26,293 nucleotides of DNA from a virus: UHGV virus genome UHGV-0165251. One strand, given 5' to 3'. The notes below the pieces were generated by a model. It saw only the letters and a list, made by a program, of their open reading frames with translations. It was not told the DNA's origin and ran no database searches. The translations under genes were made by a program, and so were the position numbers. Shown here piece after piece: positions 5,870 to 11,916 of this stretch (within the stretch, counting starts at the first letter, position 1; each line of letters begins with the position of its first letter).

Positions 5870-6838
5870 TTAGTAGGTTATTTTTGTTGCGAATACTTCG
5901 CCTTTTACGATGGCTGTTATGATATTTTTAGCAACATCTTCTGATGCACCAACCTTGATAAGGTCAGCAAGTATTTTGTTATTTACTTCTTTCCGGTGAG
6001 CTTTATCCTTTGCTCTGCGCTCTTCTTCGTCCTTGATTCTTTTTTCTTCTGCTATTCTGGCTTGCTCTTTTGCTTCAGCATCGCGACGGATTTGTTCAGC
6101 ATCCTCCTGTGCTTTTCTGCGTTCTGCTTCAATTGCTGCCTGCTTTTCTCTTTCAGCTCGTTCTGCTGCCTCTTTTGCTTCGCGCTGTGCTCGTTGCTCG
6201 GCTTCAATGCGTTCACGCTCTGCACGTTCCGCTGCGGCCTTAGCTTCTGCTTCTCGCCTTGCTGCTGCTTCAATTTCGGCTTTTGCCTTTGCTTCGGCTT
6301 CTGCTCTGGCTTTCTCTTCAGCTTCTCTTTTTAAGCGCTCTTCATGCTCTCGCTTTTCCCGCTCCGTTTTGAGTCTTGCCTCTTCTCTTTGGCGGTCAAA
6401 TTCGCGATCCATCAAAATCGCTATTTCATGGTCAGACTCAATTTGCTTTGCGAGAGCTTCAGCTGCTGCCTTAGCTTCTTCTTCGGCTTTAATCCGCGCC
6501 TGTTCTTCCTCATAATCAGTAAGAGGCTGGCGTGCCTTGGCTTTCAGCTCATCAAGGCGATCACGCACTGTCTTGCGGTTAGCATCAATTAGCTTTGGAA
6601 TTTCTTTCAGTTCAGCAACAAGGTCTTTGCCAAGACCATCGAGATATGTTTTCGTCTGCGCAACTTTATACGCCAGAGAAGCGATCTCCTTTCTGCCCTT
6701 TGCCGTTGTGATATCAGGCACAAAGGACATAACTTCACGTTCAACCTTTTGAAGGATTTCTTCAATCTGGTCGGAAGACTGAAATACAGTCATTGCATTT
6801 GCTTTTTCAATAACAACTAAATCTGTTACTTCACTCAT
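5870..6838 (-). CDS. hypothetical coiled-coil protein with a long charged E/A/K/R-rich central region
   Basis: 322-aa ORF; ggagga RBS; ~150-aa stretch of AEAKAKAEIEAAARREAEAKAAAERAERE-type repeats between distinct N- and C-terminal domains. Confidence 0.75.
   Translation of the reverse strand: MSEVTDLVVIEKANAMTVFQSSDQIEEILQKVEREVMSFVPDITTAKGRKEIASLAYKVAQTKTYLDGLGKDLVAELKEIPKLIDANRKTVRDRLDELKAKARQPLTDYEEEQARIKAEEEAKAAAEALAKQIESDHEIAILMDREFDRQREEARLKTEREKREHEERLKREAEEKARAEAEAKAKAEIEAAARREAEAKAAAERAERERIEAEQRAQREAKEAAERAEREKQAAIEAERRKAQEDAEQIRRDAEAKEQARIAEEKRIKDEEERRAKDKAHRKEVNNKILADLIKVGASEDVAKNIITAIVKGEVFATKITY
5996..6400. repeat. low-complexity purine/pyrimidine-skewed repeat DNA encoding the charged repeat region
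   Basis: Imperfect reiteration of ctgcttc/ttctgc/ttttgc units; generates spurious long ORFs in other frames. Confidence 0.6.
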
Positions 6839-6850
6839 ATATCCTCCGTC

Positions 6851-6876
6851 AAAAAATTGCCCTCACATCGGAGGGC
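6851..6876 (-). terminator. rho-independent terminator
   Basis: Minus strand ttgccctc-cgatgt-gagggcaa followed by tttttt, immediately upstream of the RBS of the coiled-coil gene; the same hairpin precedes ea10 in lambda as I recall it. Confidence 0.55.
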
Positions 6877-6982
6877 AAAGAAGATTTCCAATAATCAGAA
6901 CAAGTCGGCTCCTGTTTAGTTACGAGCGACATTGCTCCGTGTATTCACTCGTTGGAATGAATACACAGTGCCTATTCGCAGC

Positions 6983-7309
6983 CTACATAATCATTCCGGT
7001 TATTATTACCATTTCAATATCACTATCTTTCATAATGATTGGTGTTGAGTTATCAACTTTACTTTTACTCCATTTTCCTGCATCAGTTTTTACCGCTCCA
7101 CAATAAGAAAGCCAATCATCATCACAATGTTCTGGATCACTGATTCTGACAAGAACTCGTGATAGTGCTTTTTCGATACTTTCATCACAATTAGCATTTG
7201 TGTAATTGCCGTGAGACAATTTCAAATCGTTAACTTCATCTTCATTGGCATCAAAAATATAGATTTCAGTCGACTCTGGAACATTTTCATAAACCATTAA
7301 AACTTTCAT
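6983..7309 (-). CDS. hypothetical acidic protein (108 aa) at the position lambda uses for ral
   Basis: ORF rich in D/E (net charge roughly -11 by my count); no family recognised. Confidence 0.6.
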   Translation of the reverse strand: MKVLMVYENVPESTEIYIFDANEDEVNDLKLSHGNYTNANCDESIEKALSRVLVRISDPEHCDDDWLSYCGAVKTDAGKWSKSKVDNSTPIIMKDSDIEMVIITGMIM

Positions 7310-7324
7310 TTTTACCCCGTATTG

Positions 7325-7352
7325 TTTATGCCAAAAATAAAGGCCTACTATG
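7325..7352. repeat. 28-bp direct repeat, copy 1 (tttatgccaaaaataaaggcctactatg)
   Basis: 27/28 identical to copy 2 at 8095..8122; the same motif lies downstream of ral in lambda as I recall it. Confidence 0.7.
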
Positions 7353-7368
7353 CGTCCTAGTAGAATGC

Positions 7369-7827
7369 CTAATTTTCTGTTTCTTGGTTGTGTCCAAAGT
7401 TATATTCAATATCTGGTGTTGATGTATCAATATTCTTCATCCCATCAACAAGAGTTGATACAACAGCCAAATCTTGTTTGATTCTCATTAAATGGTATTT
7501 CTTCCGGCGCAATAAACTTTCAATGGCAAGTTTCTTCGTTGGGAATGCAAAAGATCTTTCTGCATTTTTTGCTACTTTCTTAATTTCATATCTATTTCTC
7601 TTTTGTTTCCATTCCTGTAACCACTGATTTGGTGCTGGTTTAAAATTAACGATCCAATGCGCAGGAACCAACCATGCATAATGCTCTGTCTGATGAAAAG
7701 CTATATATTGAAGTGCGAATATTTTGATTCCATCTTCTTCAACTGTCGCCTGGAATCTCCAGAAAACAGGCATTCCATCATGTTCAGTTTCTGATTCAGG
7801 AAAAGGTACGCTCCATGATATTGTCAT
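7369..7827 (-). CDS. hypothetical protein (152 aa), second gene of the repeat-flanked cassette
   Basis: Start overlaps the upstream stop (ATGA); no family recognised. Confidence 0.65.
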   Translation of the reverse strand: MTISWSVPFPESETEHDGMPVFWRFQATVEEDGIKIFALQYIAFHQTEHYAWLVPAHWIVNFKPAPNQWLQEWKQKRNRYEIKKVAKNAERSFAFPTKKLAIESLLRRKKYHLMRIKQDLAVVSTLVDGMKNIDTSTPDIEYNFGHNQETEN

Positions 7828-8078
7828 ATCTCACCTTCAAGAGCTTTGCTGATTGCTGACAGTGCTTTCGATACTTCATCAGGATAATGGTCATTCCATT
7901 TTTGCTTGTATGCCTTGTTTAGCATCGCTTGCAGAGCTTCGAGCAAATCAGGAGCTGCCTCCATCAATCTCACATCACCTCGATGGATGGTTGTATCGTC
8001 AAACGTGAAATAAACCCCATCATCGTTAAATCCAGCGCCAACAACATTCCATGGCCTTTTCATTCTTCCTACTGTCAT
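7824..8078 (-). CDS. hypothetical protein (84 aa), first gene of the repeat-flanked cassette
   Basis: gaggtga RBS; translationally coupled to the 152-aa gene; no family recognised. Confidence 0.65.
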   Translation of the reverse strand: MTVGRMKRPWNVVGAGFNDDGVYFTFDDTTIHRGDVRLMEAAPDLLEALQAMLNKAYKQKWNDHYPDEVSKALSAISKALEGEI

Positions 8079-8094
8079 TATTCACCTCTGTGTA

Positions 8095-8122
8095 TTTATG
8101 CCAAAAATAAAGGCCGACTATG
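8095..8122. repeat. 28-bp direct repeat, copy 2 (tttatgccaaaaataaaggccgactatg)
   Basis: Direct repeat of 7325..7352; contains the stop codon of the 8118..8432 gene. Confidence 0.7.
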
Positions 8123-8432
8123 TGGCTTTATATCTGCGCACTGAAATAATTGGGCAGTGTGTAATTCCAGCAGTCTTTTCCCATCTCAACAATGGGATGC
8201 GGAATACTTCGAACTCCACCTTCCCGATATGGTCGTTTTGGAAATCCTTTTTCCCCACCAACCAAACCTTTTCAAATCTACGCTCTATAAGGAAAGCTGA
8301 TGACCATCCATATTTAGAACCAGCTTTTAACGCTTCCTTTTTTGTCGGAAAGGTTGTAACAATGGAAATTATCTCATCAACTCGGAGGCTTAAAAGATTA
8401 TTGTCTTTAAAGCTAATTCCGTTCGACGCCAT
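8118..8432 (-). CDS. hypothetical protein (104 aa) immediately downstream of N
   Basis: Start 3 nt after the N stop; no family recognised. Confidence 0.55.
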   Translation of the reverse strand: MASNGISFKDNNLLSLRVDEIISIVTTFPTKKEALKAGSKYGWSSAFLIERRFEKVWLVGKKDFQNDHIGKVEFEVFRIPLLRWEKTAGITHCPIISVRRYKAT

Positions 8433-8435
8433 AAT

Positions 8436-8741
8436 TCATCCCTCATACAGTGGTTTGCTGCCTAATTTCATTTTCTGGCGACCAACACAAGTCACACCCA
8501 TTTCACTGCGTGGCTTGCGGTAGTAAATACGATTCTGTTTACGCTCGACTTCTTCTGACTTCTTGCAGCGAAGGCTTCCGAGTGATGCTGCTTTATCTGC
8601 TCTGACGCAACCAGAGAGCTTTAGCGCAATTTTTCGCGCCAGTCGCTGCTCTTGCATTGCCTGTTCACGTTGAGCCTGTCTGCGTGCTCTGCGGCGATTT
8701 CTGGCGTTATCGTCAGCCAGATATGTAATGACTACTGTCAT
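8436..8741 (-). CDS. N: N-type transcription antiterminator
   Basis: N-terminal arginine-rich motif NARNRRRARRQAQRE; C-terminal YRKPRSEMGVTCVGRQKMKLGSKPL resembles lambda N (YSKPGERGITCSGRQKIKGKSIPLI). Confidence 0.8.
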   Translation of the reverse strand: MTVVITYLADDNARNRRRARRQAQREQAMQEQRLARKIALKLSGCVRADKAASLGSLRCKKSEEVERKQNRIYYRKPRSEMGVTCVGRQKMKLGSKPLYEG

Positions 8742-8849
8742 GTTGACCTCCGATGATTGACTTTGGCGGTGACGCGCCGGGTGCTTATCTTCCGGTTGCT
8801 GTCGTGCAGCTGCACTTCACGTCACCCCAAAGCCAACTACTCTTTGGTT

Positions 8850-8889
8850 CCCGCATTTCGGCGGGACAATCCCATCAATGTTAAAGAGC
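8850..8889 (-). promoter_or_regulatory. nutL (boxA gctctttaa plus boxB hairpin cccgccgaaatgcggg)
   Basis: The same boxA and boxB sequences recur at 10519..10561 on the plus strand (nutR); nutL lies between pL and N. Confidence 0.6.
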
Positions 8890-8935
8890 CTGCCAATCTT
8901 TTCCGTTTGGCTTCCAGCTTCCTGCTGATGGCTAA

Positions 8936-9022
8936 AGAATACTGTAGGTATTTTATTGTGTAAATACCCAAGGTATTTATTTTTGATGAAATAATGATAA
9001 GCAAATGAATACAAAGGATATT
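8936..9022 (-). promoter_or_regulatory. oL/pL: three operators AATAC-N5-GTATT (8938..8952, 8963..8977, 9008..9022); pL -35 tttaca and -10 tattct
   Basis: Palindromes of the same consensus as in oR; putative -10 and -35 (17-bp spacer) overlap OL1 and OL2. Confidence 0.55.
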
Positions 9023-9108
9023 TATTTTTTCGGTGTCTGCTTGTTCAGTGCTTTTTATGCGGGATATGTGAAGTGGATCCCGATAGCTATTGCTGCCGGG
9101 ATTATAGG

Positions 9109-9477
9109 TTAGTCAGCGAAGGTTAAGACGAGAATTAACTTAATGATGTCTGCTACAACAGACACGGCCATAGATAAACCAAAGACGATCCAAGCCACAG
9201 TGATGTCTTCACTACCATCGTATAGAGTTCCGTAATCACTGGTGTAAGGCGTAAATGTCGCGCCTTGATACAACAGGTATAAGCTTGAACCATAGAGGAT
9301 AAATGCAGATATCCCTTGTATTGCTATGATCACTAGAATCATGAAACGAGCTGATCTATGCGCCCAAGCCTGTCTTATTTTTTCTGATAGAGATTTCGCA
9401 ATAAAAGCATGCGCTAAGCCGTAAATTGTCGAGATTGCCAACATCCCAAAAAAGCTTGCTATAGCGGTTCCAACCAT
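9109..9477 (-). CDS. hypothetical integral membrane protein (3 predicted TM helices) co-transcribed with cI
   Basis: ATG 16 nt after the cI stop with aagggg RBS (the ORF track starts it at TTG overlapping the cI stop); three long hydrophobic segments; not RexB-like. Confidence 0.65.
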   Translation of the reverse strand: MVGTAIASFFGMLAISTIYGLAHAFIAKSLSEKIRQAWAHRSARFMILVIIAIQGISAFILYGSSLYLLYQGATFTPYTSDYGTLYDGSEDITVAWIVFGLSMAVSVVADIIKLILVLTFAD

Positions 9478-9494
9478 AAGCGCCCCTTGCGTGA

Positions 9495-10211
9495 TCAAAC
9501 CAGCCTTAGTTTTGTCTCAATTGCAACGCCTATAATCTTGCAGTTTCCATTGATTGGCACGAGAGGCCATGCAGGGTTAAGTCCCTTGAGGTATTTATTT
9601 CCTCCGTCGATTATCAGCTTCTTGAATGTTGCCTCGTTAGAGTCAGAAAGTTTTGCTATGACCAAGCTGCCGTTGATCGCCTCCCTTCCGGTATCGAAAA
9701 GAACGAATGTTCCCTCTGGAATGCTTAACCCAACCGGTGCCGTCATTGAATCACCTTCCACTTTAAGCCAGAACGCATTACCTTGAATATGCGCGTCAGA
9801 CTCAAGCCAAACATCTATGTCTTTAATGGTGTATGGTTCGCATGCTTCACACCACGAGCCAGCCTGGATACTGCTTAACACCGGATACCTCTTTCCTGCT
9901 CTGTATTCCCCTGCATACCTTACGTTGGCATCGCTCTTAAGGCTTTCTGCCTGTTCTGCAACCTTGGCAGCAATTGACTGGCTAAAATCAGCAATTGAGA
10001 CTTGCAACAATCGTGCAAAACCAGATGCAACCTCAACGTTTAGCGCATTTCTGCCATTAAGATAATGCCCTACCGCTCCTTGGGTGATACCCAGTTCATC
10101 AGCGATTGAGTATTGGGTTATTCCCAATTCTTTCTTTTTTGACTCATACAAAGCCTTAAGCCGCTTAGCGTCTTCCAGCTGTTCTGTCGTCAGTGATTTT
10201 TTATTTTCCAT
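9495..10211 (-). CDS. cI: CI repressor (HTH domain plus LexA/S24-type autocleavage domain)
   Basis: 238 aa; N-terminal HTH (ITQYSIADELGITQGAVGHYLNG), C-terminal GDSM serine and K dyad region (GDSMTAPVG...VIAKL...TFKKL). Confidence 0.9.
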   Translation of the reverse strand: MENKKSLTTEQLEDAKRLKALYESKKKELGITQYSIADELGITQGAVGHYLNGRNALNVEVASGFARLLQVSIADFSQSIAAKVAEQAESLKSDANVRYAGEYRAGKRYPVLSSIQAGSWCEACEPYTIKDIDVWLESDAHIQGNAFWLKVEGDSMTAPVGLSIPEGTFVLFDTGREAINGSLVIAKLSDSNEATFKKLIIDGGNKYLKGLNPAWPLVPINGNCKIIGVAIETKLRLV

Positions 10212-10217
10212 AGCTTA

Positions 10218-10288
10218 ATTCTAATAGCTAAGGTACTTAAACTAAAAATACCCTGAGTATTGATTGCTTTGAATACCTGTAGTATTCT
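10218..10288. promoter_or_regulatory. oR with pRM and pR: operators OR3 10223..10237, OR2 10247..10261, OR1 10272..10286; pR -35 ttgatt/-10 tattct; pRM -10 tagaat on minus strand
   Basis: Three AATAC-N5-GTATT palindromes at 24-25 bp centre spacing between divergent cI and cro; the pRM -10 ends 6 nt before the cI ATG. Confidence 0.6.
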
Positions 10289-10317
10289 TTGTTCATGGTT
10301 AATAACGGAGAGTGCAT

Positions 10318-10512
10318 ATGATTCGAATGACACTTGCCGATTACGCCAAAATCCATGGACAGGCTAAAGCAGCCAGTGACTTTGGTGTAATTCAGTGCGC
10401 TATCAGCAAGGCCATTCTGGCAGGCCGTAACATCATGGTTACGGTAAAGCCTGATGGCAGTGTGATTGGAGAGGAAGTTCGTCCTTTCCCAAGCAACAAG
10501 AAAAACAAATAG
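10318..10512 (+). CDS. cro: Cro repressor
   Basis: [64 protein letters not shown] resembles lambda Cro; ggag 7 nt upstream of this ATG. Confidence 0.85.
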
Positions 10513-10518
10513 TAACAC

Positions 10519-10561
10519 CGCTCTTTAACAGTCATGGTCCTCATTCCCGCCGAAATGCGGG
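10519..10561 (+). promoter_or_regulatory. nutR (boxA cgctctttaa, boxB cccgccgaaatgcggg)
   Basis: Immediately downstream of cro; boxB identical to the nutL copy. Confidence 0.65.
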
Positions 10562-10569
10562 AATACAAC

Positions 10570-10600
10570 GCGCATAAGTTGATGCGCATAACTTCTTATT
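10570..10600 (+). terminator. tR1-like hairpin (gcgcat-aagttg-atgcgc)
   Basis: 6-bp stem followed by a moderately T-rich tract between nutR and cII. Confidence 0.3.
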
Positions 10601-10620
10601 TGTTAAGGAAATACTTACAT

Positions 10621-10914
10621 ATGGTTCGTGCAAACAAACGCAACGAGGCTCTAAGAATCGAGAGTGCGTTGCTTAACAAAATCGCAATGCTTGGAACTGA
10701 GAAGACAGCGGAAGCTGTGGGAGTTGATAAGTCGCAGATCAGCAGGTGGAAGAGGGATTGGATTCCAAAGTTCTCAATGCTGCTTGCTGTTCTTGAATGG
10801 GGCGTCGTCGACGACGATATGGCTCGATTGGCACGACAAGTTGCTTCGATTCTCACCAATAAAAAACGCCCGGCGGCAACCGAGCGTTCTGAACAAATCC
10901 AGATGGAATTCTGA
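10621..10914 (+). CDS. cII: CII transcriptional activator
   Basis: 97-aa product MVRANKRNEALRIESALLNKIAMLGTEKTAEAVGVDKSQISRWKRDW... near-identical to lambda CII as I recall it. Confidence 0.9.
   Translation: MVRANKRNEALRIESALLNKIAMLGTEKTAEAVGVDKSQISRWKRDWIPKFSMLLAVLEWGVVDDDMARLARQVASILTNKKRPAATERSEQIQMEF
10630..10643 (-). promoter_or_regulatory. pRE CII-binding site (ttgcgtttgtttgc on minus strand)
   Basis: TTGC-N6-TTGC direct repeat inside the cII 5' end, antisense orientation. Confidence 0.5.
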
Positions 10915-10937
10915 GGTCATTACTGGATCAATCCACA
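10860..10937 (-). ncRNA. oop: oop antisense RNA with terminator hairpin
   Basis: Plus strand aataaaaaacgcccggcggcaaccgagcgttctgaacaaatccagatgga... matches the lambda oop region as I recall it; cgcccggcggc hairpin plus T-run on the minus strand. Confidence 0.55.
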
Positions 10938-10946
10938 GGAGTAATT

Positions 10947-11108
10947 ATGACAAAACGTCGTAAGAAATACCAGGAAAAAGAAGAGATTCGACACCCTGAT
11001 TCACCTGAGGGATTAGTGGTAGCCGCAGCAAATAACAGGGCGTTCGCAGAGCGCCTTGTTGGTGTTTACAGACTAGCCAAAGCAGGAGTGAAACATGGGC
11101 GTCGTTAA
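10947..11108 (+). CDS. possible small basic protein (53 aa) between cII and the O-like gene
   Basis: Own translation [53 protein letters not shown]; ggag 7 nt upstream; overlaps the O-like start by 14 nt. Confidence 0.25.
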   Translation: MTKRRKKYQEKEEIRHPDSPEGLVVAAANNRAFAERLVGVYRLAKAGVKHGRR

Positions 11109-11916
11109 GTTAGCTGATTACAGGCCTCAACTGGAGGTCGTGGAGCATCGCGTGGCAGATACCGAAGATGGTTTCATGCGCGTTGCTAACGAGATTACCG
11201 ACAGTCTGCTGATGGCTGATTTAACCGTCCGGCAGCTGAAGGTGATGCTCGCTATCATGCGCAAGACATACGGATTCAATAAGCCGATGGATCGACTCAC
11301 AAACACGCAGATAGCAGCCATGACAGGTATTCATCACACTCATGTTTGCGCTGCCAAGCGCCAGCTTATCGAGCGTAAATTCCTCATTGCTGATGGCGTG
11401 AAAATCGGAGTGAACAAGGTGGTTTCTCAGTGGATTAGCCAGGACAGCTTAACATTAGCTAAAACAGCTAATAAAACATTAGCCAAGTCGGCTAATGGGC
11501 ATAAGCCAAGTCAGCTAAACACAAAAGACAATATACAAAAGACAATAAATACAAATACCCCCTTACCCCCTAACGGGGGCGGCGATGGGCAGGTTAAACC
11601 TGAACGTCGCAAGGCAGAACGAATCGACTACGAATCCTTCCTGAACGCCTACAACACCGAAGTCGGTGACAGACTTCCACATGCTGTTGCGGTCAACGAG
11701 AAACGCAAACGCCGCCTGAAGAAAATCATCCCGCAACTGAAAACGCCAAACGTGGACGGTTTCAGAGCGTATGTCAGGGCGTTTGTGCATCAGGCCAAGC
11801 CGTTTTACTTCGGAGACAACGACACGGGCTGGACGGCTGATTTTGATTACTTGCTGAGAGAAGATTCGTTAACGGGGGTTCGGGAAGGGAAGTTTGCAGA
11901 CAGGGGGATAGCATGA
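11095..11916 (+). CDS. O: replication initiator, lambda O / P22 gp18-like N-terminal domain
   Basis: [32 protein letters not shown] matches lambda O (LTKRQFKVLLAILRKTYGWNKPMDRITDSQLS); C-terminal half unrelated to lambda O. Confidence 0.8.
11453..11557. other. candidate replication origin: three ~20-bp iterons plus AT-rich tract inside the O-like gene
   Basis: cattagctaaaacagctaat / cattagccaagtcggctaat / cataagccaagtcagctaaac followed by acaaaagacaatatacaaaagacaataaatacaaatac. Confidence 0.5.

Follow-up and report, generated by a model that had tools for sequence, protein, structure and literature searches.

A rare phage protein family encoded by an accessory cassette between N and a widespread linker in a P22/HK620-like early-left operon

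The 104-aa ORF that directly follows the N gene in the window (the whole 26,293-nucleotide stretch of viral DNA analysed here) is a genuine, conserved protein-coding gene, and it constitutes an ordinary accessory cassette of the lambdoid early operon that is already catalogued as phrog_16670. We are highly confident of the part of our explanation that concerns the gene, its status as a cassette and its early expression. The whole of our best explanation, that the cassette specifies a non-essential early accessory protein made together with N and likely acting as a non-enzymatic binder of a host or defence target, is more tentative, and we place it slightly short of probable.

In the window we see the early region of an E. 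coli phage or prophage of the lambdoid, P22/HK620-like kind; about half of its length matches vB_EcoP-611R6, HF4s, CUS-3 and HK620 at 97-98% identity. An earlier note, written from the sequence without database searches, had proposed a 104-aa gene next to N, and an ORF of 104 codons lies on the minus strand at exactly the place given (ATG at 8432-8430, TAG at 8120-8118; Table 1). The refuting condition named in that note, a frame not conserved in related phages, was not borne out: the frame is uninterrupted in 20 of 20 related loci. The differences between homologues follow a coding pattern, with identities at codon positions 1, 2 and 3 of 0.78, 0.85 and 0.46 between the window and locus L008, and of 0.60, 0.76 and 0.31 between the window and locus L003. 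Position 3 is the most diverged (identity 0.31-0.46, as against 0.75-0.85 at position 2), and comparison with relatives gives a saturated dS and a dN of 0.2-0.38. The GC content of the gene is 0.41, compared with 0.47 for the window, and a protein identical to its product is annotated in E. coli prophages.

A longer ORF of 141 aa on the opposite strand (8098-8523, +) covers both the 104-aa ORF and the end of N, which raises the alternative that the antisense ORF is the real gene or that the 104-aa ORF arose by chance. We consider this alternative negligible. The antisense frame is unbroken solely in near-identical relatives and is disrupted in every diverged homologue, whereas the sense frame is disrupted in none. 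Moreover, the third-position divergence fits the minus-strand frame, an alignment of the family yielded a confident AlphaFold model, and RefSeq annotates the same minus-strand CDS as 'hypothetical protein' (e.g. WP_097680306.1). We judge the 141-aa ORF to be spurious.

Table 1. Positions of the 104-aa gene, its junctions and neighbouring early features in the window
Feature	Position	Strand	Remarks
104-aa CDS	8118..8432	-	12.0 kDa, pI 9.8, without transmembrane segment; phrog_16670 member
N-type antiterminator	8436..8741	-	101 aa, arginine-rich N-terminus; phrog_271, E 5e-38
SD-like GAGGGA	8439..8444	-	in last codons of N, 6 nt ahead of the ATG
N 3'-end junction	8441..8464	-	GGCAGCAAACCACTGTATGAGG; left boundary of cassette; variant of widespread GGCRGCAAACCACTTATTTGAGG
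Linker A, copy 1	8095..8122	-	CATAGTCGGCCTTTATTTTTGGCATAAA; right boundary of cassette; gives the ORF's TAG stop
Linker A, copy 2	7325..7352	-	between 152-aa and 108-aa genes
84-aa cassette	7824..8078	-	phrog_1273 (uncharacterised family); begins 16 nt past linker A
152-aa cassette	7369..7827	-	phrog_1636 (uncharacterised family)
108-aa cassette	6983..7309	-	phrog_4658 (uncharacterised family)
Terminator-like hairpin + T-run	6857..6878	-	first intrinsic-terminator-like site downstream of N on pL strand
nutL	8851..8889	-	boxA GCTCTTTAAC + boxB CCCGCCGAAATGCGGG; upstream of N on pL transcript
nutR	10520..10560	+	same boxA + boxB; other side of immunity region

The gene lies in the early-left (pL) operon. 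It follows nutL and N on their strand, and neither a promoter nor a terminator was recognised in between. The operon reads pL, nutL, N, the 104-aa ORF, the linker, three more cassettes, the hairpin and a tolA-like gene, followed by cIII, kil, erf, ssb, abc2, xis and int; the four post-N cassettes are GC-poor (0.33-0.44, compared with 0.47 in the window as a whole). A full N system is present. BoxA followed by boxB occurs exactly twice, where none would be expected by chance, and nutR matches nutL. For the N-type ORF itself, the score of Pfam N_peptide fell below threshold. The boxB loop of nutL and nutR presumably differs from the boxB loops of lambda and P22, which suggests that the N/boxB pair of the window forms a distinct specificity group.

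We found no promoter-like site in the 3-nt gap that separates N from the 104-aa ORF, and no terminator-like site ahead of the hairpin on the pL strand in a prediction that covered intrinsic terminators only. A promoter-like site in the linker (8104..8077) was rejected, as its -10 element overlaps the start codon of the next gene and such sites are fewer than expected from shuffles. An Rfam scan of positions 6500-11500 yielded no meaningful RNA family. The proposal of the earlier note, that the gene would be made with N at the start of the pL transcript, agrees with the predicted layout, in which the gene comes after nutL but before the first terminator-like hairpin. A pL transcript running through nutL would thus carry N and the 104-aa gene ahead of any recognisable intrinsic terminator, and the product would be among the first phage proteins to appear on infection or induction while being silent in the repressed prophage.

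Two observations concern the downstream part of this operon. In lambda, the terminator tL1 sits right after N; here, unlike in lambda, the first terminator-like hairpin comes after four accessory cassettes and, if so, all four accessory genes would be immediate-early. Separately, a 322-aa protein (5870-6838, -) has a long, repetitive middle rich in Glu, Ala, Lys and Arg (DNA repeat families D1 and D2) and carries the RefSeq label TolA-like cell envelope protein.

The gene had been described earlier as tightly coupled to N, and this description is correct, subject to two qualifications. The ORF does begin 3 nt past the N stop (ATT between TGA at 8438-8436 and the ATG), and an SD-like sequence is embedded in N (Table 1), from which the ORF could be translated by coupling or re-initiation; GAGGG is also found upstream of homologues of the gene in other contexts. 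The qualifications are that the spacing is specific to this N allele and that the gene is not functionally bound to N, as divergent homologues lie away from N. The N protein of the window ends in ...KPLYEG*, and its junction is one base shorter than the canonical ...KPLI* form; because of this shorter variant, the spacing from the N stop to the ORF is 3 nt in the window, compared with 10 nt in relatives with the canonical N end.

Tight coupling could be explained if the product were a cofactor or modulator of N that, for example, stabilises N or tunes antitermination. The 3-nt gap, the SD region shared with N, and the fact that the gene immediately follows N in six independent loci, among which two or more N alleles are represented, all fit such a role. 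However, the gene is missing from most lambdoid phages that have this N, and unrelated cassettes take its place, homologues are found behind non-N genes (as in locus L005) and in early-right or non-lambdoid contexts, and the close spacing is a property of one allele. We therefore consider a function in the service of N very unlikely.

The cassette is delimited by a short conserved sequence on each side (Table 1). As the earlier note had seen, the repeat on the right starts at the stop codon of the ORF: the TAG of the 28-nt linker is that stop codon. The two linker copies in the window are identical at 27 of 28 nt, a similarity not expected in shuffles, and at least 120 viral contigs contain the consensus, TAGT[AC]GGCCTTTATTTTTGGCATAAA. 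Linker A, 26-28 nt in length, borders many unrelated gene families on both sides (124 instances among the matches listed). Its TAG serves as the stop of the upstream ORF in 55 of the 124 listed instances, the next gene begins 14-16 nt past it in 44 of them, and the linker holds stop codons in two frames. Linker A is a widespread adaptor between gene cassettes. A literature search for a published description of it returned an indirect citation only, and a publication on the Pas sRNA proved irrelevant. The left boundary is formed by the 3' end of N, whose canonical junction (N end ...KPLI*) was found in 56 of 143 loci.

Judged from their sequences, three loci make exchange at these junctions visible. 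In L001, a single linker joins the 104-aa gene directly to the 108-aa gene, and the two genes that separate the linker copies in the window (84 aa and 152 aa) are absent; in L007, the linker A 5' half is fused to the 3' half of the N-end junction in a hybrid; and in L005, the N-end junction and the cassette stand behind a non-N gene. The cassette is also found with different N alleles and immunity regions. We propose that it would move between phages via recombination in the short conserved junctions. That lambdoid phages exchange modules via short conserved sequences on either side of them is documented (PMC2327257, citing Clark et al. 2001). The cassette studied here resembles such modules in its arrangement: it lies between two short junctions common to many phages, and the window and its relatives display hybrid junctions and gain or loss of cassettes between linker copies.

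Mosaicism of another kind is seen in the phrog_1273-like genes that follow linker A (83-99 aa; positions 7824-8078 (-) in the window, and loci L020-L139). These genes have in common a C-terminal AAPDLLEALQ motif joined to several unrelated N-terminal halves, and the mosaic boundary seems to lie inside the gene.

The interval from the N stop to the first linker is highly variable among phages. In other phages it is occupied by ral (phrog_1055, E 4.5e-49) or by phrog_3054, 1372, 1965, 8831, 19514, 37822, 5305 or 11941, singly or combined, so that approximately ten alternative cassette families are found between the N 3' end and linker A, as befits an accessory region. The phrog_3054 occupant is a membrane protein, and ral alone among the slot cassettes has a known function. 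Among the linker-carrying loci listed, 21 of 123 have ral in the post-N slot; the window does not contain ral. No locus of the six with the 104-aa gene after N carries ral alongside it (0/6, compared with 21/123 overall), numbers too small to bear on mutual exclusion of ral and the 104-aa gene.

The phrog_16670 family is rare. The gene is carried by 17 of 5,426 complete E. coli genomes (12 with nearly identical copies and 5 with copies about 69% identical), by 1 of 50,697 phage records, a Klebsiella Uetakevirus, by 3 of 185,579 species-representative genomes, and by 16 IMG/VR contigs. It occurs in two main settings. Six loci (the window, L001, L004, L006, L007 and L147) have it directly after N, and these include at least two different N N-termini, the P22 type among them, as well as different repressors. 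Elsewhere it belongs to nin-like early-right regions, where it follows DUF1064 and Ea22-like genes and in most cases overlaps the upstream gene by 4 nt. More distant members are found among small early ORFs next to RusA, NinB and RecT, and one resides in a virulent-looking contig with a ligase, an SbcCD-like nuclease, a dNMP kinase and ThyX. Because divergent homologues occur in nin-like regions and in phages without N nearby, the gene is not tied to N. A 58%-identical homologue in L146, a 3.6-kb contig from a Sphingobacterium MAG (the bin being a Bacteroidota MAG), is probably a binning artefact rather than an extension of the host range.

Wherever it occurs, the gene forms part of an early operon and has no signals of its own, lying 3-10 nt from the upstream gene or overlapping it by 4 nt. 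This embedding argues against a self-expressed moron, that is, a superinfection-exclusion or defence gene expressed from the prophage for the benefit of the lysogen. Low GC content and sporadic distribution do resemble those of morons, and the membrane protein phrog_3054, which holds the slot in other phages, is a possible exclusion factor. However, the 104-aa gene has neither a promoter nor a terminator of its own, no terminator being present after it in the window, and it lies inside the repressor-controlled pL operon. Its product has no PADLOC match and no membrane segment, and one phage contig that carries the gene is virulent-looking. We regard a benefit to the lysogen of this kind as highly improbable.

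The earlier note had recognised no likeness to lambda proteins, and the database searches accord with this: neither Pfam nor NCBIfam contains a match for the 104-aa protein, PADLOC-DB returned 0 families at E <= 0.1 (a library that covers defence, not anti-defence), and the PHROG match is to an uncharacterised family. The homology and structure searches that had been suggested gave phrog_16670 as the sole family and no significant fold neighbour. The 104-aa protein belongs to this catalogued phage family of unknown function, with residues 4-103 matching profile positions 3-102 of 109 (E 8.8e-40), and 64 of 64 aligned members match phrog_16670 only (best E 6e-73). An initial search gave six relatives, and with a profile the number rose to 63 homologues of about 100 aa and 37-95% identity, with no named protein or Pfam domain among them; a Pfam scan of all 64 members at E <= 1 gave scattered noise only. 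An HMM search of 1.84 billion cluster representatives produced just 57 matches, all short stand-alone proteins save one 2,474-aa repeat protein, and none of the 57 is fused to an informative domain. A literature search under accession and family identifiers found no publication.

A profile search of PDB sequences matched only a 29-residue beta-alpha motif (F-x-TK-x-EA...G-x-x-GW) of NDUFS4, the 18-kDa subunit of complex I (sequence E-value 0.024, stretch E-value 0.13). The alignment (tF-x-TK-x-eA...g-x-x-GW) reflects a local resemblance only. PF04800 matched 2 of the 64 members, with E ~0.09 (0.086), and did not match the window protein. Membership in NDUFS4/PF04800 was rejected, as the matches are sub-threshold, cover a quarter of the protein and are accompanied by no fold match. 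The motif, in the form F-x-TK-x-EA-x(3)-G/A-x(3)-G-W/Y, recurs in six copies in the 2,474-aa metagenomic protein (P0107), which matches the family through the motif alone, and has single occurrences in the 60-aa cassette of L041 (phrog_37822) and in NDUFS4. Rather than pointing to homology, the motif is probably a beta-alpha unit of common occurrence, and kinship of the 104-aa protein with the phrog_37822 cassette, which shares F-x-TK-x-EA, was likewise rejected.

The protein is basic, with a pI of 9.8 against a family median of 9.5, and its conserved residues are K31, R52, E54, K61, R78, R83 and R100 together with the tryptophans W43, W57 and W84. The family alignment contains no conserved His, Cys or Ser/Asp constellation, and the 104-aa protein has no transmembrane or hydrophobic segment; the lack of a catalytic residue pattern and of a hydrophobic segment favours a soluble binder over both an enzyme and a membrane protein. 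AlphaFold2, applied to the family alignment, predicted three short helices, a beta-alpha motif and then a beta meander (pLDDT 89.2, pTM 0.76), and in a second model (pLDDT 88.9), made for a homologue of 37% identity, the elements follow one another in the same order. Foldseek searches of the PDB with the two models returned nothing significant (best E 1.4 and 0.5, TM <= 0.33), nor did a search of BFVD with the first model (best E 1.1). OB-fold and PC4-type ssDNA binders, including SSBs, PriB and the OB subunit of RECC1, recur among these insignificant matches. We treat this as a mere hint and, given such scores for two independent models, rejected membership in an OB-fold or PC4-like ssDNA-binding family.

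The recurrence of ssDNA binders nonetheless bears on the main rival to our preferred reading, in which the protein would help in phage DNA transactions as a small basic binder of single-stranded or structured DNA that aids recombination, replication or repair. The basic character of the family is in keeping with this role, as are the DUF1064, RusA, NinB, RecT and Ea22-like genes that adjoin divergent homologues in nin-like regions and the ligase, nuclease, kinase and ThyX genes of the virulent-looking contig; these replication and recombination neighbours of divergent homologues fit a DNA-transaction role equally well as they fit a defence-directed one. On the other hand, the structural matches are all insignificant (best E 0.5, TM below 0.33), SSB, Erf and Abc2 are already encoded in the window, and nin and early neighbourhoods are unspecific because those regions are dumps for accessory genes. 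Moreover, so sporadic a distribution suits an arms-race gene better than it does core DNA metabolism. On balance we think it unlikely that the protein is a DNA-transaction helper.

Our preferred reading is that of a binder directed at the host or its defences. The product would be an alpha+beta protein that is small, soluble, basic and stand-alone and has no catalytic or metal-binding motifs, and it would most probably act through stoichiometric binding of a host component, be it a nucleic acid or an acidic protein surface. By analogy with Ral in the same slot, its most probable role would be counter-defence or host modulation. Counter-defence as such is a guess by position, which we consider possible though doubtful. 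The function of most early-left genes of P22-like phages is not known, and Ral, like the 104-aa protein as we picture it, is small, early and non-essential (PMC8022706). The Ral protein of lambda and P22 likewise occupies the slot between N and linker A. The two differ in length (66 aa for Ral, 104 aa here) and have no sequence relationship; the hhalign probability is 0.1%, the PHROG scan gave no phrog_1055 match, and a kinship with Ral was rejected.

In enterobacterial phages, accessory regions that contain ral have been found to hold an excess of counter-defence genes and of triggers of these defences (Silas et al., bioRxiv 10.1101/2023.04.06.535777). Those regions, like the one described here, have variable content between conserved flanks, with Ral as the known counter-defence member, and the low GC content and sporadic distribution of the 104-aa gene also fit the genes in them; the 104-aa protein is not among the sequences in the supplements of that study. 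A defence-directed binder appears the most plausible reading because the slot is shared with Ral, because ral-containing regions yield counter-defence genes, and because the distribution is sporadic. Sharing a slot with ral is an association only, and the other nine slot cassettes are themselves uncharacterised. A bolder version, that phrog_16670 represents a new type of early counter-defence protein with an unseen fold, a basic non-enzymatic binder in the post-N slot that, like Ral, would neutralise nucleic-acid-sensing or nucleic-acid-cleaving host immunity, strikes us as improbable.

Taken by itself, the gene is a routine hypothetical early gene and opens no long-standing question. The slot is of wider use: precisely bounded by the N 3' end and linker A and holding about ten unrelated cassettes, it provides a compact list of candidates for counter-defence screens. 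The junctions with their hybrid forms offer a clean example of single-gene swapping in lambdoid early operons, and given a confidently predicted model that lacks a structural neighbour, a function for the protein would probably come with a new fold. In E. coli DP051, which carries a relative of this prophage, the N-proximal region encodes an 'Nmad5 family putative nucleotide modification protein' in place of these cassettes, which adds a further candidate for counter-defence to this neighbourhood.
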